This document shows positions 6,250-35,790 of a stretch of DNA of 64,000 nucleotides, piece after piece. Below the pieces are notes generated by a model. The model saw nothing but the letters and a program-made list of their open reading frames with translations, was not told the origin of the DNA and ran no database searches. Position 1 is the stretch's first letter; each line of letters opens with the position of its first letter. Source of the DNA: a virus; IMG/VR virus record IMGVR_UViG_3300045988_142974, positions 108,868 through 172,867 of that record, one strand, 5' to 3'. The position numbers and the translations under genes were made by a program.

Positions 6250-6258
6250 TTGTTATAA

Positions 6259-6310
6259 ATATACCATATATAGTATTAAAAATAAACGATATATACTATA
6301 TATGGTATAT
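6259..6310. repeat. 18-bp perfect inverted repeat (hairpin, 16-nt loop); candidate terminator / module boundary
   Basis: ATATACCATATATAGTAT (6259-6276) is the exact reverse complement of ATACTATATATGGTATAT (6293-6310); followed by ATTTT. Confidence 0.8.
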
Positions 6311-6423
6311 ATTTTACATTAGAATGAATCGCACATTTCTTTATGAAATAGATAATTTAATACATATATTAGAAAAATTCAAAAAAGAATGTCCTGAGCA
6401 TATTGGAGAATGGAGATAACATT

Positions 6424-7043: not shown

Positions 7044-8072
7044 ATGACAATTGAACAGATTAAGGACAAATTAAAATCAAAAGAGTATGACTTCCTGAGA
7101 ACAGATAAGAATTTGGGTAACAATATCATTATCTTAACTCTTGGTGGAAGTTATGCATATGGAACAAATAATGAGGGTAGCGATTTAGATATTCGTGGTT
7201 GTGCTTTGAATAGCAAGATGCAGATTCTTACAAATGAGAATTTTGAGCAGTTTGTAAACAATGAGACAGACACAACCATTTATGCCTTTAATAAGTTAGT
7301 AGCTTTGTTAAGTAATACAAACCCTAACACAATAGAAATGCTTGGAAATAAGCCAGAACACTATTTCTATGTATCTCCTATTGGTCAGGAACTTATTGAC
7401 AATGCGCATTTATTTTTATCAAAGAGAGCTTGTCATTCGTTTGGCGGTTATGCTAATCAGCAATTATACAGATTAAATCAGAAAGCTGCACATCAGATGT
7501 CGCAGTCTGAATTAGAGAAACATATTCTAAAGACTCTTGAATTTATGCAGACTGACTTCACAAAGAAATATACACCATATGAAGATGATTCTATGAAATT
7601 ATATATTGATAAAGCTGTGCAGGAAGGCTACGATACAGAAATCTTTATGGATATAAATCTTCATCATTACCCATTAAGAGATTATTGTTCTATGTGGAAT
7701 GAGCTTCAGAATACAGTTCGTCAATATGGAAAAATTGGTAAGAGAAATGAAAAAGCAATTGAACATGGTAAAATTGCTAAACATTCAATGCATCTTATTC
7801 GACTGTATATGATGTGCTTAGATATTCTTGAAAAAGAAAGAATAATTACATACAGAGAAGATGAGCATAATTTACTAATGGATATTCGCAATGGCAAGTA
7901 TTTGGATAGCAACGATCAGCCAATCCCAGAATTCTTTGAAATGGTAAATGATTATGAAAAGAGATTAGATTATGCGAAGAAAAACACAAGTCTTCCTGAT
8001 AATCCTAATTATAAGGCTATCAATGAATTTGTTGCTAGTGTAAATGAAAGGGTGGTAAAAGGTGAAATCTAA
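7044..8072 (+). CDS. Pol-beta-fold nucleotidyltransferase (resembles the RlaP / PF10127 RNA-repair-associated type as I recall it)
   Basis: ILTLGGSYAYGTNNEGSDLDIRG = GS-x-YG...SDxD NTase signature; start at ATG 7044 after GGAGG (track ORF 6921 overlaps kptA). Confidence 0.7.
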   Translation: MTIEQIKDKLKSKEYDFLRTDKNLGNNIIILTLGGSYAYGTNNEGSDLDIRGCALNSKMQILTNENFEQFVNNETDTTIYAFNKLVALLSNTNPNTIEMLGNKPEHYFYVSPIGQELIDNAHLFLSKRACHSFGGYANQQLYRLNQKAAHQMSQSELEKHILKTLEFMQTDFTKKYTPYEDDSMKLYIDKAVQEGYDTEIFMDINLHHYPLRDYCSMWNELQNTVRQYGKIGKRNEKAIEHGKIAKHSMHLIRLYMMCLDILEKERIITYREDEHNLLMDIRNGKYLDSNDQPIPEFFEMVNDYEKRLDYAKKNTSLPDNPNYKAINEFVASVNERVVKGEI

Positions 8073-9429
8073 TTTGAAGATTGAAATTCCATCTGGTGCA
8101 AATGAAATTATCCATAGTCTACAAAATAATGGATATGAAGCTTTCTTAGTCGGAGGATGTGTAAGAGATAGTATTCTTGGCAGACCAATTCACGATTATG
8201 ACATTACAACTTCTGCCACGCCAGATGAGATGATGGAAGTATTCAAGGACAAGAGAATTATTGAAACTGGATTACAGCATGGAACTATCACAATTTTAAT
8301 TGACGGTGAAGGATATGAATGTACCACTTACAGAATTGACGGTAATTACTCAGATAGTCGTAGACCTGATAGCGTAACATTTACACGAAATCTTAAAGAA
8401 GATTTAAAGCGTAGAGATTTTACAATTAATGCAATGGCTTACAATGATGAAGTTGGTCTTATAGATCCGTTTAATGGTATGGAAGATATTAAATACCACA
8501 AGATTAGATGTGTTGGCAGAGCAGAAGACAGATTTTCAGAAGATGCATTAAGAATTTTACGTGCCATTCGGTTTGCCTCACAGTTGGGATTTGTCCTTGA
8601 ACCTGATACAGATTGGCATATTTCTAAAATGTATAAGAATTTGGAGAATATATCTATTGAAAGGATCAATAGTGAATTTTGTAAAATTGCTGCATCGAGT
8701 GATTTCTGTGTACAAATGGTCTTATATCACGAAGTATTCTCGTTGTTCATTCCTGAAATTAAAGATATGTTTGGTTTTCAACAGAATAATCCATATCACA
8801 TGTATGATGTATGGAATCATACCGTACATGCAATAGAATATTGTGAATCCGATGATTTAGTAACAAGATTGGCAGTATTCTTTCACGATTTTGGTAAGCC
8901 ACACTGTTATCAAGATGGAGAAGATGGTATCAGACACTTTAAAGGTCATGGAAGAGTAAGTGCTGATATGACCAATGAGATTATGAAACGTCTTAGATTT
9001 GACAATGATACAAGAGAAAAGGTCATTGAATTAGTCTATTATCATGATGCTACTTTTGAGGTGGGAAAGAAATATGTCAAGAGATGGCTTAATAAAATTG
9101 GAGAAGAACAGTTCAGAAGGTTATTAAATGTTCGTAGAGCTGATATTAAAGCACAAGCAGACATGGCTCAGGAAACAAGATTACAGAAAATTGATAACAT
9201 CGAATATATTTTAGAAGAAGTCTTACAGGATGATGAATGTTTTTCTCTAAAGGATTTAGCAGTTAATGGAAAAGATGTAATGGATACAATGCTCATTAAA
9301 AGTGGAAAAGAAGTTGGCTACTGGCTCAATGAAATCTTAACTCGTGTAATAGATGGGAGATTAAAAAATGATAAAGAGGATCTTATTTATTGGATGACTG
9401 GTATTACAGATGGTTGGATAGAATATTAA
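8062..9429 (+). CDS. cca: CCA-adding tRNA nucleotidyltransferase with HD domain
   Basis: GGCVRDSILGRPIHDYDITT, RRDFTINAMA head-domain motifs; FHDFGKP HD motif; GTG start overlaps upstream stop by 11 nt. Confidence 0.85.
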   Translation: MKSNLKIEIPSGANEIIHSLQNNGYEAFLVGGCVRDSILGRPIHDYDITTSATPDEMMEVFKDKRIIETGLQHGTITILIDGEGYECTTYRIDGNYSDSRRPDSVTFTRNLKEDLKRRDFTINAMAYNDEVGLIDPFNGMEDIKYHKIRCVGRAEDRFSEDALRILRAIRFASQLGFVLEPDTDWHISKMYKNLENISIERINSEFCKIAASSDFCVQMVLYHEVFSLFIPEIKDMFGFQQNNPYHMYDVWNHTVHAIEYCESDDLVTRLAVFFHDFGKPHCYQDGEDGIRHFKGHGRVSADMTNEIMKRLRFDNDTREKVIELVYYHDATFEVGKKYVKRWLNKIGEEQFRRLLNVRRADIKAQADMAQETRLQKIDNIEYILEEVLQDDECFSLKDLAVNGKDVMDTMLIKSGKEVGYWLNEILTRVIDGRLKNDKEDLIYWMTGITDGWIEY

Positions 9430-10180: not shown

Positions 10181-10193
10181 GGTGAGAGAATAA

Positions 10194-10870: not shown

Positions 10871-10935
10871 AGAATAATCTAATATAGAAGCAATTCTATT
10901 CACGGCTGATCAGCCAAATTAAGTGAGGTGATAAA

Positions 10936-11235
10936 GTGAAAAAATATTGGGAAACAGGTGAAAAGAATGATTTTGGTAAGGAATGTTATAAATTACATTT
11001 TAGTCAATTTTATGAAGAAGATGATGAAAATGTAGTAGCTGGTTTTGTACAAGATGAGATAGACGAAAACATATTTATATATGTATCAAAAGAACTAAAT
11101 GTTGAATATGATACATTGTTTGCAGACAATATAGAAGATGCAAAGCATCAAATTGAAGACATGTTAATAGACCATTGGAATGATGAGATTGATTATTTAG
11201 AAAATCGAATTAAATCATTTCAAAACGAAGAATAA
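10936..11235 (+). CDS. hypothetical acidic protein
   Basis: GTG 4 nt after GAGGTGA; 99 aa. Confidence 0.5.
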   Translation: MKKYWETGEKNDFGKECYKLHFSQFYEEDDENVVAGFVQDEIDENIFIYVSKELNVEYDTLFADNIEDAKHQIEDMLIDHWNDEIDYLENRIKSFQNEE

Positions 11236-11256: not shown

Positions 11257-11428
11257 TTGGCGATTCAGCCAAATTTTCCAAATAAAAGTAACAAGAAATA
11301 TTTTTTCCTATGGTTTTAGCAGACGTGCAAATTCCATAGGATTTTACAACAAAATAATTAAGAAGAAAGGAATTAAGCAGTAACTCCTGGGTAATTATGG
11401 TTACGTAACCTCTGTAAAATAGTGTATT
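11257..11428 (+). promoter_or_regulatory. structured leader, copy A (homologous to 26049-26207)
   Basis: Hairpin TTGGC-gattca-GCCAA (11257-11272), GTAACAAG box, hairpin 11306-13/11334-41, AGAAAGG box, 12-bp palindrome GGTTACGTAACC (11399-11410). Confidence 0.55.
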
Positions 11429-15302: not shown

Positions 15303-15593
15303 ATGAAGAAGAAAATTTTAGCAGTTGCATTAGGATTAACATTGTGTTTTGGAATGACTGGATGCACTGCAAGCGATGATTTGGCAGCCTCTAATATTCC
15401 AAATGAACAACAGTCTAAATGTGAACATGAATACAAAGAAATTGATTGGCATGTTCAGTCATATTCGGACGGTAGTAATGTTGGTTATGATATTTATTGC
15501 CCTAAATGTGAATATGAAATAAATGTTAGTTATAAAGAGTGGAATAAAATTCAAGCAGATATGGAATATAAGAAGGAAAATAAAGCACAGTAA
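15303..15593 (+). CDS. lipoprotein
   Basis: MKKKILAVALGLTLCFGMTGC signal peptide with lipobox; two CxxC pairs. Confidence 0.65.
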   Translation: MKKKILAVALGLTLCFGMTGCTASDDLAASNIPNEQQSKCEHEYKEIDWHVQSYSDGSNVGYDIYCPKCEYEINVSYKEWNKIQADMEYKKENKAQ

Positions 15594-15609
15594 ACCGAAG
15601 TTTCTTTTG
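15586..15609 (+). promoter_or_regulatory. dyad motif copy
   Basis: cacagtaaa ccgaag tttcttttg; left half contains the stop codon of 15303-15593. Confidence 0.6.
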
Positions 15610-15667
15610 AATTTTCAAGGGCAAGTCGCTCAAAAATCCAAGTAAAAGAGAATATTACAAAGAAAGG

Positions 15668-15716
15668 ATAATTAGTAGCTGGCTTTAAAGGTTGCAACCG
15701 CTTTGGTACTAATTAT
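15668..15716 (+). promoter_or_regulatory. leader hairpin enclosing palindrome GGTTGCAACC (15690-15699)
   Basis: 10-bp stem ATAATTAGTA / TACTAATTAT; 3' arm reaches first base of TTG start 15716. Confidence 0.6.
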
Positions 15717-16522
15717 TGAAACTACAAAATGATAAGTATTACACACCAATAGAATTGGCGAATTACTGTTGGGATAAGGTTTTTGAAGTTGTTGGCGAAG
15801 AAAATATATCAGAGATTATTGAGCCTAGTGTTGGGAATGGCAGTTTTCTTCATCATGCAGAGCAACTACCACATTTTGCGTATGATATTGAACCTGAGTG
15901 CGAATCTAATTTTACTCATATCTTTAAGCAGGATTATTTAAGTGCTGATATAAAGTATCTTTGGGGAAGGCTGATAATAGGAAATCCACCATACGGAAGA
16001 TGTTTAAATATGGCACAGAAATTTTTTAAGAAGTCAGTTGAAATTGCAGATACAATTGCATTTATTCTTCCTATAAGTCAATTGAATAACACAAGGTCAA
16101 TGTATGAGTTTGATTTGGTATATAGTGAAGATTTAGGTATCCAGCATTATACAGATAGAGATTTACATTGTTGCTTTAATATTTATCGCAGACCTGATAG
16201 TGGAGAATTAAATAGTAAACCAGTCGCAAAATTAAAGGATGTCACTATATATCGGCAGGATAGCAAGGGATATAACGAGAAAGATTTTGATGTTCGTATG
16301 TGCTATTGGGGTGATGGATCTGCTGGAAAGATATTAAAGGATGATGAACATTATTCGGCAGAATATAAAATCAAGATAAATAATGAAGAATTAAAAGAAG
16401 ATATTATTGAAGTGCTTACTACATTTGATTGGAAGGAATATCTAAATTGTATTGCAATGAGAAAAATACAACAATTTCACATTGTCGATGTCTTAAAGAA
16501 GAATATCAAAGGAATTAAATAA
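15716..16522 (+). CDS. N6-adenine DNA methyltransferase (gamma-type, NPPY)
   Basis: DKYYTP, EPSVGNGSF (motif I), IIGNPPYG (motif IV); TTG start, no SD. Confidence 0.8.
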   Translation: MKLQNDKYYTPIELANYCWDKVFEVVGEENISEIIEPSVGNGSFLHHAEQLPHFAYDIEPECESNFTHIFKQDYLSADIKYLWGRLIIGNPPYGRCLNMAQKFFKKSVEIADTIAFILPISQLNNTRSMYEFDLVYSEDLGIQHYTDRDLHCCFNIYRRPDSGELNSKPVAKLKDVTIYRQDSKGYNEKDFDVRMCYWGDGSAGKILKDDEHYSAEYKIKINNEELKEDIIEVLTTFDWKEYLNCIAMRKIQQFHIVDVLKKNIKGIK

Positions 16523-16541
16523 GAGAATAATACATTGAAAG

Positions 16542-16581
16542 GAGCAAGAGATTTGCTGCAGCGTTAAATCTGGATTTGCTC
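16542..16581 (+). promoter_or_regulatory. leader hairpin with apex palindrome GCTGCAGC (16555-16562)
   Basis: Nested stems GAGCAA/TTGCTC and AGATTT/AAATCT; 5' arm overlaps the only GGAG (16541-44). Confidence 0.6.
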
Positions 16582-16591
16582 TGAGTAAGAA

Positions 16592-17467
16592 ATGTTAGAG
16601 ATTAACAAAATATACAACGAAGATTGCTTTGAAGGTATGAAAAAGATTGATGATAAGTCAATAGATTTTATTTTTACGGATCTTCCTTATAATACGACTA
16701 ATAATTCTTGGGAATGTGAAATGCCGTTAAATGATTATGTCGAGTTATCAGGTCAATATTTTTATGAAACAGATTTATTCAAGTTAGCTCAAGTAACAAA
16801 TAGCAGTCTCGAATATACAAGAGATTGGTTCTACGAGAATAAGAAAGATGGCTTATGGAATCATTACAATCGAATCATCAAAGATAACGGTTGTATTGCA
16901 CTATGGGCGCAGTCACCTTTTGATAAGAAACTCGCTTGTAGTAATGAAAAGCTATATCGCTATGAATGGATTATCGAAAAAACCAAAGCAACTGGTCATC
17001 TAAATGCAAAGAAAATGCCTATGAAGGCACACGAAAATGTCTTAATTTTCTATAAGAAACTCCCTACTTACAATCCACAAATGACAGAAGGACATACACC
17101 TGTTCATTCTTATACAAAACATACAACAGATGGTAGCTGTTATGGTGCTACAAAGACTGGTATTTCAGGTGGTGGTAGTACACAAAGATACCCAAGAGAT
17201 GTTCAGCAGTTCAAGTGGGACACTCAGAAAAGTAGCTTACATCAATGTCAAAAGCCTGTTGAAGCGTGTGAGTATTTTATTAAAACCTATACTAATCCAG
17301 GAGATTTAGTTCTTGATTCGTGTGCAGGAAGTTGTACCACTGCAGTTGCAGCTTTGAATACAGGTAGAAATTACATATGTTTTGAGAAGGACAAGGATAT
17401 TTTTGAGGTTGGAAGTAAGAGAGTAGCTGAATATGCTAATCAGGATTTATTGATAAGTGCAACTTAA
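16592..17467 (+). CDS. DNA methyltransferase, N4/N6 beta class
   Basis: FTDLPYN (DPPY-type motif IV) N-terminal, DSCAGSCTTAVAA (motif I) C-terminal. Confidence 0.85.
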   Translation: MLEINKIYNEDCFEGMKKIDDKSIDFIFTDLPYNTTNNSWECEMPLNDYVELSGQYFYETDLFKLAQVTNSSLEYTRDWFYENKKDGLWNHYNRIIKDNGCIALWAQSPFDKKLACSNEKLYRYEWIIEKTKATGHLNAKKMPMKAHENVLIFYKKLPTYNPQMTEGHTPVHSYTKHTTDGSCYGATKTGISGGGSTQRYPRDVQQFKWDTQKSSLHQCQKPVEACEYFIKTYTNPGDLVLDSCAGSCTTAVAALNTGRNYICFEKDKDIFEVGSKRVAEYANQDLLISAT

Positions 17468-17490
17468 TTAAGAGAATAAGAACAATGAAA

Positions 17491-17531
17491 GGAGACGAGG
17501 TTCGTGTACACAAGAAGGAATTCCTTACTCC
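17491..17531 (+). promoter_or_regulatory. leader: GGAG / CTCC pairing enclosing palindromes GTGTACAC and AAGGAATTCCTT
   Basis: GGAG 17491-94, CTCC 17528-31; palindromes 17504-17511 and 17515-17526. Confidence 0.55.
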
Positions 17532-17540
17532 AAGTAATTT

Positions 17541-18275
17541 ATGAAATATATGGGTTCAAAATCTCGTATAGTTGATAATATTTTACCGATTATTCAAGAA
17601 AGATTGCGAGATTATAATATCAAAACATACATAGAGCCATTTTGCGGCGGCTGTAATGTAATCGACAAAGTTCAATGTGATATAAAAATCGCTTCTGACA
17701 ATCATAAATATCTTATTGAAATGTTCAAGAATCTAAATCAGATTCAAAATCTCCCAGAATTTATTACAAAAGAACATTACTCAGATGTAAGAAAGTGTTT
17801 TAATAAAGGATTATCCCAATATCCAGATTGGTATATTGGTGCAGTTGGCTTTCTTTCAAGCTATAACGGAAGATTCTTTGATGGAGGTTACTCAGGTATC
17901 GTATATACAAAAGCTGGAACTGAAAGAAATTATTACGATGAAGCTAAGAGAAATTTGTTAGAGCAGATTCCAAGGTTAGAAGATATTCAATTCCAATGTG
18001 GAGATTATAAAGAGTTATATTCTGATAAAGTTGACTGCTTATTTTATTGCGATATTCCATATAAGGGTACGAAACAGTATGGATCAAGTAAGAATTTTGA
18101 TTATGACAGATTCTGGAATTGGGCTGAGAAGATGAGCGAGAAAAATATTGTCTTAGTCAGTGAGCATGAAGCTCCTTCTGGATGGGAATGTATTTGGCAA
18201 CAGGAAGTCAAGAGAACGATTGACAATACGAAGCAAGTTAAAGCAGTAGAAAAGTTATTTGAAATTAGAGAATAA
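17541..18275 (+). CDS. Dam-like N6-adenine DNA methyltransferase (D12 class)
   Basis: MKYMGSKSRI, EPFCGG, YCDIPY. Confidence 0.85.
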   Translation: MKYMGSKSRIVDNILPIIQERLRDYNIKTYIEPFCGGCNVIDKVQCDIKIASDNHKYLIEMFKNLNQIQNLPEFITKEHYSDVRKCFNKGLSQYPDWYIGAVGFLSSYNGRFFDGGYSGIVYTKAGTERNYYDEAKRNLLEQIPRLEDIQFQCGDYKELYSDKVDCLFYCDIPYKGTKQYGSSKNFDYDRFWNWAEKMSEKNIVLVSEHEAPSGWECIWQQEVKRTIDNTKQVKAVEKLFEIRE

Positions 18276-18294
18276 ATATCTGGGAGGTGACAAT

Positions 18295-18681
18295 TTGAAT
18301 GAACCAAAGTTTTATGTACAGGAATTAATATCTACGGAATATATGGACAAAAGAGTTTTAATCCTATATCCATATGAACTTAGCAATGAGCCGATATTAA
18401 AAGACAATATTCCCAAAATGACAAAAGTGATAAGAGAATATATAAAAGAGTCTGAAATGTATAGAAAGTGTGTAGATACAATTCCAAATCTTATATGGGA
18501 TTCTCAAAAATTATCTATGCAGAATGAAGCTGATGAACATCAAAGAAAAGCTGATGAACTTGCAGAAATAATGAATGAAGGTATCAGTCCTTATGCGTGG
18601 TATGTTAAAGGTAGGTTTGATGGAGAGATAGGTGGATTTCATTACAATGTAGATAATATAGTTTATTTGGATAGAAACTAG
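18295..18681 (+). CDS. hypothetical protein
   Basis: TTG 4 nt after GGAGGTGA; track start 18259 overlaps upstream gene. Confidence 0.5.
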   Translation: MNEPKFYVQELISTEYMDKRVLILYPYELSNEPILKDNIPKMTKVIREYIKESEMYRKCVDTIPNLIWDSQKLSMQNEADEHQRKADELAEIMNEGISPYAWYVKGRFDGEIGGFHYNVDNIVYLDRN

Positions 18682-18780
18682 CAAGAAATTTTGGTTTCAA
18701 GGTTTGTCACGAAAACTATATAATATTCGGGATAAAAAAGAGAATATATCAATGTAATTACAATTAAGGAAAGGAAAGAC

Positions 18781-18820
18781 GTTCACATGTGAGTAAAGCT
18801 GCGCAGCTACTATGGTGAAC
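18781..18820 (+). promoter_or_regulatory. leader hairpin with apex palindrome AGCTGCGCAGCT (18797-18808)
   Basis: GTTCAC (18781-86) / GTGAAC (18815-20); ends 4 nt before TTG 18825. Confidence 0.6.
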
Positions 18821-18824
18821 AAAT

Positions 18825-19661
18825 TTGAAAAATACATATATTAAATCGCCTCTAAATTATGTCGGAGGCAAGTATAAGTTACTACCAATTATTGTACCAA
18901 TGTTTCCAGATAAGATAAATACTTTTGTAGATTTATTTGGTGGAGGTTTTAATGTCGGTATTAATGTAAAAGCTGATCATATTATCTACAATGATATATG
19001 TGAGCAGGTAGTTGGTTTTCTAAGATATTTACAAGGTTCAAATATTGAAGAAGTATTATATAAGATTGATTCATATATTAGTAAGTATGGATTAACGAAA
19101 GAAAACAAAGAAGGATATTTACTGTTTAGAAAAGAATATAACACAGGTATTAAAGATCCAATTAAATTCTATACGCTTTTATGTTATGCGTTCAATAATC
19201 AAATCAGATTCAATTCCAAAGGTGAATATAACATGCCTTTTGGTAAAGACAGATCCAGTTTTAATCCCACTCTTAGACAAAAATTTATAGATTTTCATAA
19301 GCAACTGAATGAAATAGATTGTAGTTTCTTAAATATTCCATTTGAGAGATTTGATTTTTCTGATTTTACGGAAGGTGATTTTGTTTATGCAGATCCACCA
19401 TATTTTAATTCTGTTGCTACATACAATGAAAACGGTGGCTGGACAGAAGAAATGGAGAATAAATTACTAGAGACTCTTGATGCTTTGAATGATAAAGGCG
19501 TTAAGTTTGCATTAAGTAATAATCTCAAATATGACAATCCATTACTTGATAAATGGAAAGATAAATACATAGTTCATTATTTAAAGCATGATTATAGTAA
19601 CTGTAATTACCAGAAAAAGGATAAGAGTGCAGATTGTGAGGTATTAATCACAAATTATTAA
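18825..19661 (+). CDS. Dam-like N6-adenine DNA methyltransferase (D12 class)
   Basis: LNYVGGKYKLL, FVDLFGGGFNV, YADPPY; TTG start, no SD. Confidence 0.85.
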   Translation: MKNTYIKSPLNYVGGKYKLLPIIVPMFPDKINTFVDLFGGGFNVGINVKADHIIYNDICEQVVGFLRYLQGSNIEEVLYKIDSYISKYGLTKENKEGYLLFRKEYNTGIKDPIKFYTLLCYAFNNQIRFNSKGEYNMPFGKDRSSFNPTLRQKFIDFHKQLNEIDCSFLNIPFERFDFSDFTEGDFVYADPPYFNSVATYNENGGWTEEMENKLLETLDALNDKGVKFALSNNLKYDNPLLDKWKDKYIVHYLKHDYSNCNYQKKDKSADCEVLITNY

Positions 19662-21423: not shown

Positions 21424-23622
21424 ATGAGAGTATTACTTTTATTAAGAGGCTCTGCTGGTTGTGGAAAATCAACTTGGATTGAGCAGAATGGATTAAAGTC
21501 ATATGCATTATCAGCGGATGATATTAGATTACTGTGTCAGAGTCCAGTATTACAACCTGATGGAACAGTAGGGATTAGTCAGAGTAATGATAAAACCGTT
21601 TGGAAGACATTGTTTAATTTACTTGAAATTCGTATGCAGAAAGGTGAGTTTATAGTAATTGATGCTACAAATTCAAAAACATCTGAGATAAACAGATATA
21701 AGCAGATGTGTGAAACATACAGATATAGGATGTATTGTGTCGATTTTACAGATATTCCAATTGAAGAAGTAAAGAAAAGAAATGTCAACAGAGAGGAATT
21801 AAAGAGAGTTCCTGATGAAGCAATCGAAAAAATGTATTCACGTTTCAAGACTCAGAAAATTCCTTCTGGTATTAAGGTAATTAAGCCAGATGAGTTAGAT
21901 TCTATTTGGATGAAGTTATTTGATTTATCTGAATATAAGAAAATTCATCATATCGGAGACGTTCATGGTTGCTATACAGCGTTAAAGAAATATATTGATG
22001 ACAATGGCGGTATTAAAGATGATGAATTTTACATCTTCTGCGGTGATTATGTAGATAGAGGTATTGAAAATGCTGATGTTGTTAAGTATCTGATTTCTAT
22101 TAAGGATAAGAAAAATGTCCTTATGCTTGAAGGAAATCATGAAAGATGGCTTTGGTTATGGGCTAATGATTGTACAAGTAAGTCTAAAGAATTTGAACTT
22201 GTAACAAAGCCACAGTTAGAAGAAGCAAAGATTGATAAAAAGGATGTACGTCAGCTTTATAGAAAATTTGGACAGTGTGCTTATTATAGATATGGAGAAA
22301 ATATTTATTTAGTAACTCATGCAGGTTTAAGTGTATTACCAGATAATCTTACATTTGTTGCAACAGATCAGATGATTCATGGAGTTGGTAATTACAATGA
22401 TTTTGAAAAAATTGCAGAGACATTTGCTGAAAAAATGCCATCAAATTATTATCAAATTCATGGTCATAGAAACACTAAACAAGTTCCAATTCGTGTGAAT
22501 GATAGAGTATTTAATCTTGAAGGAAGAGTTGAATTTGGTGGGAATTTAAGATGTGTTCAGCTTGATAAAGATGGTATGTACGAAATAGAAATTCATAATG
22601 AAGTATTCAAAACACCCGAAATGAGAGAAGAACAGAGTGTAACAAATAGTTCTGTTGCTGATGTAATTATTTCATTAAGAGCAAATAGATACATTCAGGA
22701 AAAGAAATTTGGTAATATTTCTTCTTTCAATTTTACGAACAAGGCTTTTTACGACAAGGTATGGGACGAGCAGACTACAAAAGCAAGAGGTTTATATCTT
22801 GACACATTTAAGGGAAAGGTAGTAGCAAGGGCTTATGATAAGTTCTTTAACATCAACGAGCGACCAGAAACAAAATTTGATATGCTACAGAATAAGCTTC
22901 AATTCCCTGTTACAGCATATGTAAAAGAAAATGGTTATTTAGGTATTGTAAGCTACGATGAATACAATGATGATTTATTTATTGCAAGTAAATCTACTAT
23001 TGACAGTCAGTTTGCACAATGGCTCAAAGAAGCTATTTACAATCAGATTACAGAAGAAAATAGAGAAAAAATGAAACAGTATGCGAAAGATAATAATGTG
23101 TCATTTGTATTTGAAAATGTTGATATGAAAAATGATCCGCATATTATTGAATATCTTGAAAGTAAGTTATATCTATTAGATATTGTTTATAATCAGATGG
23201 ATTTTGCTAAATATGATTATGAAACTATGTGTGATATTGCTCATCAGCTTGGATTAACTCCAAAAGAAAAAGCATTTGAGATTGCTAATTGGCAGGATTT
23301 TTATGATTGGTACTATGATATTCTTGAAGAGGATTATGAATACAATGGTAGAAAAATTGAGGGATTTGTAATCGAAGATAGTGTTGGATATATGACAAAA
23401 CTGAAGCTTGCATATTATAACTTTTGGAAGTTTATGAGAGCAATTTCACATGAAGCTATTAGAAATGGATATATTAAAAAGACATCTGCTTTAACAACTC
23501 CTATTGCTAATGAGTATTATGCATGGGTAAGAAAGTTGCATGATGTCGATGATATTGATTCAATTCCAAAAGATATTTGTACATTGAGAAGATTATTTTT
23601 TAAAGACAAATTAGGAGAATAA
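21424..23622 (+). CDS. polynucleotide kinase / metallophosphatase / RNA-ligase-like fusion (Pnkp-like RNA repair enzyme)
   Basis: P-loop GSAGCGKST; calcineurin-type GDVHG, GDYVDRG, GNHE, GH; C-terminal nucleotidyltransferase motif I YVKENGYLG (KxNG). Confidence 0.8.
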   Translation: MRVLLLLRGSAGCGKSTWIEQNGLKSYALSADDIRLLCQSPVLQPDGTVGISQSNDKTVWKTLFNLLEIRMQKGEFIVIDATNSKTSEINRYKQMCETYRYRMYCVDFTDIPIEEVKKRNVNREELKRVPDEAIEKMYSRFKTQKIPSGIKVIKPDELDSIWMKLFDLSEYKKIHHIGDVHGCYTALKKYIDDNGGIKDDEFYIFCGDYVDRGIENADVVKYLISIKDKKNVLMLEGNHERWLWLWANDCTSKSKEFELVTKPQLEEAKIDKKDVRQLYRKFGQCAYYRYGENIYLVTHAGLSVLPDNLTFVATDQMIHGVGNYNDFEKIAETFAEKMPSNYYQIHGHRNTKQVPIRVNDRVFNLEGRVEFGGNLRCVQLDKDGMYEIEIHNEVFKTPEMREEQSVTNSSVADVIISLRANRYIQEKKFGNISSFNFTNKAFYDKVWDEQTTKARGLYLDTFKGKVVARAYDKFFNINERPETKFDMLQNKLQFPVTAYVKENGYLGIVSYDEYNDDLFIASKSTIDSQFAQWLKEAIYNQITEENREKMKQYAKDNNVSFVFENVDMKNDPHIIEYLESKLYLLDIVYNQMDFAKYDYETMCDIAHQLGLTPKEKAFEIANWQDFYDWYYDILEEDYEYNGRKIEGFVIEDSVGYMTKLKLAYYNFWKFMRAISHEAIRNGYIKKTSALTTPIANEYYAWVRKLHDVDDIDSIPKDICTLRRLFFKDKLGE

Positions 23623-26004: not shown

Positions 26005-26028
26005 CGCAGTAAACCAATCTTTCTTTTG
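26005..26028 (+). promoter_or_regulatory. dyad motif copy
   Basis: cgcagtaaa ccaatc tttcttttg; 7 nt after stop 25998. Confidence 0.6.
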
Positions 26029-26048
26029 AAAATTTTTAATCATATCTA

Positions 26049-26207
26049 AGCCATTCGGCTATGGGAATCCCAGTAACAAGGAAAAATAATATTTTCTTAT
26101 AGTGGTTGCAAACACTAGGAAAATCAATAATTTTATAATACAGAAAGGTATAAATAGTAAACCTATAGGTAATTTAGATTGCGCAATCTCTATGTAAATA
26201 AGAGATT
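26049..26207 (+). promoter_or_regulatory. structured leader, copy B (homologous to 11257-11428)
   Basis: Hairpin AGCC-attc-GGCT, GTAACAAG box, TAGTG/CACTA hairpin around TTGCAA, AGAAAGG box, palindromes ACCTATAGGT (26161-70) and AGATTGCGCAATCT (26176-89). Confidence 0.55.
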
Positions 26208-35060: not shown

Positions 35061-35172
35061 GACTCATTTGAGTTACAATTTCCAATAAAAATGAAAATCG
35101 AATAGAGAATAAGTAAGTGAAAGGAGTTCAGTGGAAATCACTGTTTCATTCGGATTTTGAGGAGGTGAGAAA

Positions 35173-35790
35173 GTGCCAACAGGTTATACAGCATATATAA
35201 AAGATGGAGATATTACAACAGGAAAAGACTTTTTAAAGCTTTGTCTTAGAAATTTTGGTATAGCTATTAATATGAGAGATGAGCCATTATCAAAACCAGT
35301 CCCAACTCAGTTTGAACCAAATCCTTATTACAAGAAAGATTACGAGAAAACTGTTGATGTTCGTAATAAATATAGACAAATGACTTTTGATGAAGCGAAG
35401 AAAGAGCTTATTGATAAGCATAAAAAAGATATGGAATCAGCAAAAAAGTCTCTCGATGAATTTATTGCAGAAGATGAGCGATATATGAAAGTTAGAGATG
35501 AAATTGAAAAGTGGATTCCACCAACATCTGAACATGAAAATGTTAAGAAGTTCGCATTAAATCAAATTGATATATCGCTAAATACAGATATGAGAGAATA
35601 TTGTAATAAGGAATTAAAAAAAGATTTAGACATTAGCGATGAAGCAGTTCATTTATATATGAATGAGATTAATGAGTTTTATGAAAACAGTGTTACTAGA
35701 GCATATAAAAAATGGCAGGAAGAATTAAAGAGAACTGCTGATAAAAATATGTGGATGAAACAATTCTTAGATAGTTTAGAGAATATATAA
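35173..35790 (+). CDS. hypothetical protein
   Basis: GTG 4 nt after GAGGTGA; 205 aa. Confidence 0.55.
   Translation: MPTGYTAYIKDGDITTGKDFLKLCLRNFGIAINMRDEPLSKPVPTQFEPNPYYKKDYEKTVDVRNKYRQMTFDEAKKELIDKHKKDMESAKKSLDEFIAEDERYMKVRDEIEKWIPPTSEHENVKKFALNQIDISLNTDMREYCNKELKKDLDISDEAVHLYMNEINEFYENSVTRAYKKWQEELKRTADKNMWMKQFLDSLENI

Follow-up and report, generated by a model that had tools for sequence, protein, structure and literature searches.

Palindrome-cored leaders in front of DNA-modification genes of a phage and its relatives: candidate cassettes for limiting translation

Structured leaders with palindromic cores stand directly in front of DNA-modification genes in a 64,000-nucleotide (nt) stretch of viral DNA, positions 108,868 to 172,867 of the IMG/VR record IMGVR_UViG_3300045988_142974. 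This whole stretch is called the window below, and positions are counted from its first nucleotide. A leader of this kind precedes all five methyltransferase genes of the window and one of approximately 90 other genes. It consists of a Shine-Dalgarno (SD)-like box, GAAAGGA(G) or GAAAGGT, located 45-60 nt 5' of the start codon in all six genes, and of self-complementary sequence that fills the gap between this box and the start. Judged by sequence comparison, the leader occurs in hundreds of related phage contigs and in Lachnospiraceae or Clostridia genomes. We describe its architecture, conservation, covariation, spacing and gene association. As to function, we lean slightly towards a family of portable structured 5' translation-initiation cassettes that limit translation of DNA-modification genes, and we infer that they act on the RNA, limiting rather than enhancing translation. 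The work follows up an earlier observation, the original prediction, that four methyltransferase genes start without an SD behind a distal SD-like box and a hairpin. It is partly confirmed, being largely real and extending to a widespread element.

The six genes are all encoded on the + strand. They are a C5 cytosine methyltransferase (PF00145; 11429..12352), the N6-adenine methyltransferase-like M1 with an NPPY motif and without a Pfam match (15716..16522), the N6_N4 methyltransferase M2 (PF01555; 16592..17467), the two D12-class N6-adenine methyltransferases M3 and M4 (PF02086; 17541..18275 and 18825..19661) and a PAPS-reductase-like gene, here PAPS (PF01507; 26208..27257). A motif scan of the window found no sixth methyltransferase. 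TTG is the start codon in three of the six (C5, M1 and M4) and ATG in the others. All six starts are forced, as the reading frames open just 1-2 codons 5' of 11429, 15716, 16592, 17541, 18825 and 26208, and family motifs follow within a few codons in M1 (YYTP), M4 (SPLNYVGGK) and C5 (LSLCGG).

An SD of at least four nucleotides, 3-12 nt 5' of the start, was found for 76 of the 95 window genes defined by a simple heuristic gene caller. The six leader genes are all among the other 19, which have no SD or only one embedded in a stem, so the claim that nearly all genes here have a close SD and the methyltransferases do not is borne out. No SD is present within 20 nt of the starts of the leader genes, save for a GGTGA (18814-18, + strand) buried in the 3' stem arm of the M4 leader, 6 nt before the TTG. 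The proposed absence of an SD from the four genes M1 to M4 is therefore correct for M1, M2 and M3 and needs amending for M4. The distal SD-like box had also been predicted and was recovered before each methyltransferase.

GC-rich palindromes had been described as exceptional in this DNA, and a shuffling test agrees. Of seven perfect palindromes that measure 10 bp or more and contain six or more G/C, five are intergenic, though intergenic DNA makes up 6.7% of the window, and each of these five ends 17-21 nt before a start. A conservative control, in which the intergenic segments were shuffled in 300 trials, gave a mean of 0.8, and none of the trials reached five. Every palindrome named in the original prediction was found in its place, and the hairpin stems named there for M1, M2, M3 and M4 are present in the minimum-free-energy folds. 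One extra GC-rich palindrome, GGCTGATCAGCC (10904..10915, + strand), is located 21 nt before the gene at 10936, which has a normal GAGGTGA SD.

The leaders of M2 and M3 are two members of one scaffold, called A. In the M2 leader (16537..16591, + strand) the SD-like box GAAAGGAG (16537-44) is followed by a junction, a first palindrome P1 (GCTGCAGC, 16555-62), GTT, a second palindrome P2 (AAATCTGGATTT, 16566-77), a G, CTC (16579-81) and a 10-nt spacer before ATG 16592, and the base is formed by pairing of GAGCAA (16542-47) with TTGCTC (16576-81). The M3 leader (17487..17540, + strand) is a variant with GAAAGGAG at 17487-94, P1 GTGTACAC at 17504-11, P2 AAGGAATTCCTT at 17515-26, CTCC at 17528-31 and a 9-nt spacer before ATG 17541. 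It also contains an upstream open reading frame (ORF) of 19 codons, from ATG 17485 to TGA 17542-44 (+ strand), overlapping the M3 start in an ATGA.

Scaffold C is found before C5 and PAPS, again on the + strand. In the C5 leader (11365..11428) the box GAAAGGA (11365-71) is paired by CTCCT (11384-88), followed by GGGTAATT, the palindrome GGTTACGTAACC (11399-410) and a hairpin that buries TTG 11429. The PAPS leader (26143..26207) has GAAAGGT at 26143-49, of which AGGT pairs with ACCT (26161-64), the palindromes ACCTATAGGT (26161-70) and AGATTGCGCAATCT (26176-89), an alternative hairpin AATCTCT/AGAGATT adjoining the ATG, and an upstream ORF from TTG 26179 to TGA 26209-11 that overlaps ATG 26208. 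The original prediction had extended its arrangement to these two genes, and the forced start, the missing close SD, the distal box and the palindrome are indeed shared; its GAGAATA box is absent from both leaders.

The two remaining leaders are built as spanning hairpins on the + strand. The M1 box GAAAGGA (15662..15668) is followed directly by a hairpin (15669..15715) with arms TAATTAGTA (15669-77) and TACTAATTA (15707-15), which is conserved in homologous loci and carries the apex palindrome GGTTGCAACC (15690-99). It occupies the whole gap between box and TTG 15716 with no free nucleotides. In the M4 leader (18768..18824) the box GGAAAGGA (18768-75) and 5 nt precede a stem of GTTCAC (18781-86) and GTGAAC (18815-20), with the palindromes TCACATGTGA (18783-92) and AGCTGCGCAGCT (18797-808) inside it, and 4 nt separate the stem from TTG 18825. 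The hairpin thereby cuts the SD-to-start gap from 49 nt to 5+4 nt.

Two of the mechanisms proposed earlier can be assigned to these classes in part. Sequestration of the SD fits M2, M3, C5 and PAPS, where the SD core is paired (GGAG:CUCC, AGGA:UCCU, AGGU:ACCU) with covariation. A hairpin bridging SD and start is geometrically plausible in M1 and M4 only, as the M2/M3 type has its SD core inside the helix. Opening the M2 SD is predicted to cost 4.9 kcal, above the 95th percentile of ordinary genes, and opening the start codons of C5, M1 and PAPS 5.3-6.2 kcal against a median of 2.5. A search of the whole window against Rfam 15 returned nothing at gathering score, and for 15590-18900, with E-values up to 10, chance matches alone, every one inside coding sequence. 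The leaders yielded no site resembling a sigma-70 promoter or a terminator, and promoter-like matches in the region were fewer than in shuffled sequence.

Upstream regions were read for homologous loci of M2, M4, M3, M1, PAPS and C5. More than ten different genes stand upstream of an M2 leader that is itself kept from GAGAATA through the ATG; the junction reads TAA-GAGAATA. At eight loci the M2 homologue has an ordinary SD and no leader, and the same is true of some M4 homologues, which makes the leader a regulatory add-on and not part of the enzyme. The general form of scaffold A is (GAAA)GGAG, 2-6 nt, GAG-N-TTT, P1 (a GC-rich palindrome of 8-14 bp), 3 nt, P2 (AAA-N6-TTT, 12 bp), N-CTC(C/T) and approximately 10 nt before the start. 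It is also found before distant M4 homologues (loci L102, L103, L106 and L125), M1 homologues (L221, L227 and L230), a C5 enzyme, a small DPPY enzyme and other D12 and N6_N4 paralogues. The C5 family of the window is in addition preceded by a bridging-type leader carrying GGTGCGCACC and by scaffold A carrying TGTCATGACA, giving three scaffold types for one family.

A pattern scan was run on IMG/VR and on 185,579 species genomes with the scaffold letters fixed and P1 and the inner six bases of P2 left free. The matches split cleanly into two classes. In IMG/VR, P1 was perfectly palindromic in 63 of 65 distinct matches. In the genomes approximately 62 were palindromic, mostly on contigs labelled Lachnospiraceae or Clostridia, and most of those with a callable ORF have its start 8-13 nt downstream; the approximately 58 non-palindromic matches belong mostly to other taxa, have no ORF behind them and are chance background. 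In gene-oriented loci all matches to the regular expression were on the same strand as the gene behind, and in the strand-blind scans an ORF follows nearly all true elements. The genes in question are mostly methyltransferases (C5, N6_N4, D12, NPPY and SNF2-fused) and PAPS-reductase-like genes, together with sigma-70-like, Myb-like and zinc-ribbon genes.

Some of these C5 enzymes have unusual layouts. The ORF behind a GTGCGCAC leader on a Clostridia contig from a metagenome-assembled genome (L402) encodes an 868-residue C5 methyltransferase that appears to be split by an intein-like insert (CSFPCF...VHNCTD) between catalytic motifs. SPbeta-type C5 methyltransferases behind leaders at L230 (4746-6035), L362, L381 and L443 start at FCEFDKYA without the N-terminal motif I, and in L230 an FFSGIGAF motif is found at the C-terminal end, which suggests a permuted or fused arrangement, or mis-called boundaries.

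Pairing was followed in an alignment of 126 distinct leaders (A1). The base after GGAG and the base before CTC covary (T:A 60, C:G 43, T.G 11, C.A 5), and the base after CTC is C or T, both of which pair with G, in 150 of 153. The SD core is thus part of a conserved covarying helix in scaffold A, and likewise in scaffold C, as in an SD-sequestering operator; in the latter (C5 and PAPS) the covarying pairs are AGGA:TCCT, AGGT:ACCT and GGAATTT:AAATTCT, with a second hairpin over the start. CTC and the start are separated by 10 nt in 80 of 144 leaders and by 9-11 nt in 115. Within P2, the three free inner pairs show complementarity in 99.9% of cells, and each position uses all four Watson-Crick types; in 123 of the 126 leaders a purine in the column that closes P1 on its 3' side faces a fixed U. 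Overall, 96.8% of cells can pair compared with 68.3% in column shuffles, none of 500 shuffles matched this value, and the signal collapses once partner columns are slid by 1-3 positions.

The imperfect palindromes are informative about the level at which pairing takes place. At least 15 distinct cases are of the G.U type on the sense strand (for example CTGG, GTGC, ATGT, TCATGG and GTGGCTAC) against one A.C case, which favours pairing at the RNA level. A transcription-linked C-to-T bias on the non-template strand could contribute to the G.U excess. An alternative fold, a long hairpin between the junction and the 5' half of P2, was considered and is weakly supported (61% pairable against approximately 54% expected). 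Cofolding favoured a dimer over shuffles, a result that is trivial for any hairpin.

P1 and P2 are hypervariable and stay palindromic down to the central dinucleotide all the same. The 126 aligned leaders contain 23 P1 and 36 P2 sequences that combine freely, GTCCGGAC and GTGCGCAC as P1 each being joined to many different P2. The adjacent central nucleotides are complementary in 125 of the 126 (AU, GC, CG, UA or UG, never GU), the exception being A/C. Close relatives differ by symmetric double substitutions even at adjacent central bases, where CG changes to TA and TA to CG; other examples are GTGTACAC to GTGCGCAC, TGTGCGCACA to TGTACGTACA, ..ACGT.. to ..ATAT.. and ACGT to GTAC. Palindromes in the coding sequence of the same genes (TCTGCGCAGA, GAAAATTTTC and AACTGCAGTT) decay to non-palindromes among the same homologues, so the symmetry of the cores reflects selection and not a general mutational tendency; templated (quasipalindrome) mutation as its source is disfavoured on the same ground. 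Odd-centred cores (GGCAGCC and AAACGCAGCGTTT) occur in the M3 homologues L151, L157 and L161 and at L161 572-626, which shows that a centre of symmetry on one base is tolerated too.

The reading we lean to runs as follows. SPbeta-like gut phages and other mobile elements of Clostridia would place the leader before DNA-modification genes. The strong SD (GAAAGGAG) would stay at its usual distance from GAGAATA, with 40-50 nt of self-complementary RNA inserted before the start. In the M2/M3 type GGAG would pair with CUCC 10±1 nt before the start and close a junction with the palindromic hairpins P1 and P2. In the C5/PAPS type a nearby anti-SD would pair with the SD and a second hairpin would cover the start codon, and in M1 and M4 the hairpin would span the gap between SD and start in the style of a split ribosome-binding site. 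The start codon, often a weak UUG, would receive ribosomes rarely or conditionally, through breathing of the helix, bridging by the hairpin or reinitiation after a short upstream ORF, and potentially harmful DNA-modifying enzymes may in this way be kept low or delayed.

Several results weigh against limitation of translation by these leaders. The idea of unusually stable RNA hairpins had to be rejected, as folding z-scores against shuffles range from -1.8 to +0.5. The SD-like boxes of M4 and C5 are predicted to be accessible from their opening energies, and with at least three different architectures one mechanism may not cover all six leaders of the window. The aligned leaders share kinship, so their counts are not independent, and conservation of the letters GGAG, GAG, TTT, AAA, TTT and CTC is no evidence, because the scan pattern fixed them. 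Selection for an ordinary hairpin does not predict full symmetry, since the central 2-4 nt cannot pair intramolecularly. Translation could equally be enhanced, in the fashion of a split ribosome-binding site, and not repressed.

If enhancement were the rule in all leaders, the intervening RNA would be looped out, the distal SD brought to working distance and translation promoted. T4 genes 38 and 25 have such split sites, in which a hairpin brings a distant SD nearer to the start, the spacing falling from 22 to 5 nt and from 27 to 11 nt (PMC3014915). M4, at 5+4 nt, would by its geometry fall in this range of approximately 5-11 nt, the M1 hairpin fills its GAAAGGA-TTG gap exactly, and the helix base of scaffold A, with GAAA(G) 5' of the helix, is 10±1 nt from the start, a typical SD spacing. 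We consider this unlikely as a general explanation. The effective spacing in M1 would be approximately 0 nt unless its A-U stem frays, as it could, and in scaffolds A and C, unlike in T4, the SD core itself (GGAG or AGGA) is paired with covariation to CUCC or UCCU; a GGAGG subclass leaves no purine run outside the helix. The inserts here are also 40-50 nt long with two helices and portable between genes, and the weak UUG starts argue for low expression, which is probably limited here and not enhanced. Coupling to a short upstream ORF, in which the distal SD drives an ORF starting 8-9 nt downstream (UUG, GUG or AUG) and ribosomes reinitiate at the SD-less methyltransferase start, is an improbable account of the whole family. 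In 127 of 144 scaffold-A leaders a TTG is present 8-9 nt past GGAG, PAPS and M3 have upstream ORFs that finish in ATGA overlaps with the main start, and TTGA overlaps are seen in many scaffold-C homologues and in L102 and L103; but most scaffold-A ORFs stop approximately 27 nt before the start, 33% ending within ±12 nt, five P1 types beginning with C, T or A remove the TTG, about a third of leaders have no in-frame TAA, and chance stop codons are frequent in AT-rich leaders. A universal upstream ORF was rejected; in some leaders such ORFs may deliver ribosomes. Doubtful as the main function, and compatible with limitation of translation, is a mobile regulatory cassette in which leader and GAGAATA would mainly be a homology linker at which co-infecting phages shuffle methyltransferase cassettes. 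The constancy of leader plus gene behind many upstream genes at the TAA-GAGAATA junction, the same leader before different methyltransferases, the free recombination of P1 and P2 and the three scaffold types of one C5 family all suit it. PeSL cassettes of T4-type phages are a precedent, being conserved intergenic stem-loop motifs that flank variable genes and mark module boundaries (PMC2839356, PMC4122927). PeSLs are, however, early sigma-70 promoters combined with a terminator-like stem-loop, whereas the leader is a translation-initiation element with SD:anti-SD pairing, fixed spacing and palindromic cores; a linker needs no such covariation, no fixed 10-nt distance to the start and no perfect palindromes, and hypervariable cores lower homology and do not raise it.

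The symmetry of the cores leaves three readings: recognition as symmetric duplex DNA, intermolecular RNA pairing, or a dual reading. A speculative version, to which we give little credence, has the leader forming an intermolecular duplex, P1:P1 and P2:P2, between two mRNA copies, so that each message would sense its own concentration through a private, genome-unique palindrome, much as in the palindromic dimerisation loop of retroviral RNA; as a variant, one sequence might be read twice, as dyad-symmetric DNA and as an RNA hairpin. The original prediction had also allowed for palindromes that serve as operators or as target sites of the enzymes themselves, with methylation sensing as the means of autoregulation; in the form considered here, the methyltransferase encoded behind the leader would recognise or bind the palindrome and regulate itself at the DNA level. 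Type II systems are known in which the methyltransferase's own site is inside its promoter, CfrBI being an example. The dyad symmetry is perfect through the centre as in type II sites, the association with methyltransferase genes is strong, GCTGCAGC is present in all leaders of the M2 family and a TGCGCA core in M4 relatives (at least 68% identity) on two different scaffolds, and decayed variants are mostly C-to-T at CpG (CCGG to CTGG, GCGC to GTGC), as for 5-methylcytosine sites. Yet the palindromes do not track enzyme identity, on which ground own-site autoregulation is rejected and ranks as very improbable. M3 proteins at 93% identity whose target-recognition regions are not swapped have either TGTGCGCACA or TGTACGTACA in their leaders; C5 enzymes approximately 95% identical to that of the window carry GGTTACGTAACC (..ACGT..) or GGTTATATAACC (..ATAT..), and those approximately 81% identical carry GCTTACGTAAGC or GCTTGTACAAGC (ACGT or GTAC cores). 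The P1 classes of M3 are GTGTACAC, GTGCGCAC, GTACGTAC, GTAGCTAC, GTTGCAAC and GGCAGCC; identity within the largest class, 0.90, equals its identity to most other classes, and no target-recognition segment of the M3 proteins tracks P1 class. Identical P1 and P2 (CTGCGCAG and AAATCATGATTT) precede D12, NPPY and N6_N4 enzymes, identical leaders precede M3 and a 45%-identical paralogue, and leaders also precede sigma-factor-like, Myb-like and zinc-ribbon genes. The constant GCTGCAGC in M2 and the TGCGCA core in M4 relatives are most simply explained by shared descent of leader and gene. That the cores are operators of dimeric DNA-binding proteins, such as helix-turn-helix (HTH) regulators of the C-protein or Aca-like kind, which may recognise them as DNA and as RNA hairpins alike, is likewise hardly credible, even though perfect two-fold symmetry is the hallmark of such sites. 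The HTH protein Aca2 reportedly binds both its operator DNA and an RNA stem-loop encoded by that operator. Methyltransferase and C-box autoregulation in type II restriction-modification also places palindromic DNA directly upstream of a methyltransferase gene and is a precedent (C-box: PMC2632904). Here, by contrast, the palindromes ignore enzyme identity and show RNA-type signatures (G.U asymmetry, with G.U tolerated, and purine/pyrimidine constraints), which count against own-site autoregulation, and no C protein and no HTH gene was found among the scanned proteins of the window's methyltransferase island. One scaffold holds at least 23 P1 and 36 P2 sequences, 7-10 different cores occur within the window by itself, near-identical phages differ in theirs, and no regulator gene stands beside each leader, the one small ORF checked in the island, at 18295-18681, having no Pfam domain.

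A test of the leader palindromes as rare or avoided sites gave mixed results and is uninformative: CTGCAG occurs twice against 10 expected, and TTGCAA, TGCGCA, TGATCA and TGTACA are near expectation. The two CTGCAG sites of the window are in the M2 leader and in the M2 gene. In the hexamer census of the whole window many other 6-bp palindromes are strongly avoided as well, namely ATCGAT (0 against 8.6 expected), CAGCTG (0 against 9.3), CTCGAG (0 against 5.0), GGATCC (0 against 5.3), AGTACT (1 against 9.3), GTTAAC (1 against 8.4) and GAATTC (14 against 31.6).

The GAGAATA box had been proposed as the first element of a methyltransferase signal. It does stand upstream of M1 (15648..15654), M2 (16523..16529, its first base directly after the M1 stop codon and at a module boundary in relatives), M3 (17472..17478) and M4 (18740..18746), all on the + strand. 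The window contains 79 copies on the + strand against 4 on the - strand, at many ordinary junctions, and for 22 of them an ordinary start follows after 13-80 nt. The box is generic to intergenic DNA, and its role as a methyltransferase-specific signal was rejected. In the form (A)GAGAATA(A/T), for example at 10186, 14846, 18268, 21386, 34298, 34710, 35779 and 49109, it is strongly strand-biased and intergenic, often overlaps the preceding stop codon (TAAGAGAATAA), precedes the SD of ordinary genes by 7-12 nt and occurs where shuffled modules join in relatives. It may serve as a phage-specific promoter, as a site of processing or as a site of recombination.

At 35105-35172, a small hairpin (CAGTG gaaat CACTG) and then an ordinary SD (GAGGAGGTGA) come after GAGAATA-N7-GAAAGGAG and before the gene at 35173, an arrangement that resembles the leader and retains a working SD; a similar GAGAATA-N8-GAAAGGA is present at 8644 within the ORF 8062-9429. 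Intergenic modules are also reused. atcatatctaagccattcggctatgggaatcccagtaa (26041-26078) lies upstream of the PAPS gene and, identically, before M1 in other phages (L212 and L213), and CAGTAAACC..TTTCTTTTGAA follows the stop codons of two different genes (15585-15620 and 26008-26035) and forms a CCGAAG/CTTCGG hairpin in some relatives.

The window is AT-rich, with a G+C content of approximately 32% and a strongly positive GC skew, and every long ORF is on the + strand. It encodes a PolC-type polymerase that shares 38% identity with yorL of Bacillus phage SPbeta; further genes are those for DnaB-like and RecD2-like helicases, an NAD-dependent ligase, an anaerobic ribonucleotide reductase and an RNA-repair set. 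As close relatives we identified IMG/VR contigs, mostly of 90-220 kb, many with human-gut-style sample identifiers. From the polymerase, the other genes and these relatives, the source is read as a large SPbeta-like phage of gut Firmicutes. A search for near-identical DNA among isolated phages gave no match, and a window-wide search for direct repeats gave only short motif similarity.

The RNA-repair set, at 7044-9429 and 21424-23622, comprises an RlaP-like nucleotidyltransferase, an enzyme of the CCA-adding or poly(A)-polymerase family with an HD domain, and a fused kinase-phosphatase-T4-type RNA ligase, which suggests a counter to host tRNA or anticodon nucleases. An AT-rich region at 6250-6330 with long inverted repeats (ccatatatagtat ... 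atactatatatgg), within a gap of approximately 400 nt without a convincing gene, may be an origin or a regulatory region.

The closest functional parallel known to us from the cited work is the mom gene of phage Mu, whose mRNA is activated for translation by Com (PMC6483171) and whose untimely expression is toxic and silenced (PMC3378877). There too a phage DNA-modification gene has a cis-acting leader directly upstream, and mRNA structure masks the translation start (PMC6483171, PMC3378877); by analogy, the translation-inhibiting stem-loop of mom, which Com opens, may be regarded as the functional counterpart of the leader. The present element differs in being modular, in serving many unrelated methyltransferase families, in its two hypervariable perfect palindromes and in belonging to Firmicute phages; a Com-like activator was not identified here, no systematic search for one having been made. 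A survey of IMG/VR lists four candidate structured RNAs, described as uncharacterised, that are typically upstream of DNA N6-adenine methyltransferase genes (PMC10690425). The main text of that survey gives no structure, mechanism or palindrome property for them (PMC10690425), and the palindrome-cored leader may be among the four.

Orphan phage methyltransferases are a major counter-defence against restriction, and their expression is little understood. The leader is a widespread portable control element common to unrelated DNA-modification genes, and its signature helps to locate such genes and module boundaries. Being compact, it also lends itself to experiment, and the effects of stem, compensatory and centre-breaking mutations are clearly predicted. 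A dyad symmetry that is perfect and yet free in sequence is not expected from ordinary hairpin regulation. If RNA dimerisation, or a dual reading as DNA and RNA, were true, this would be a new regulatory principle in bacteria and phages.

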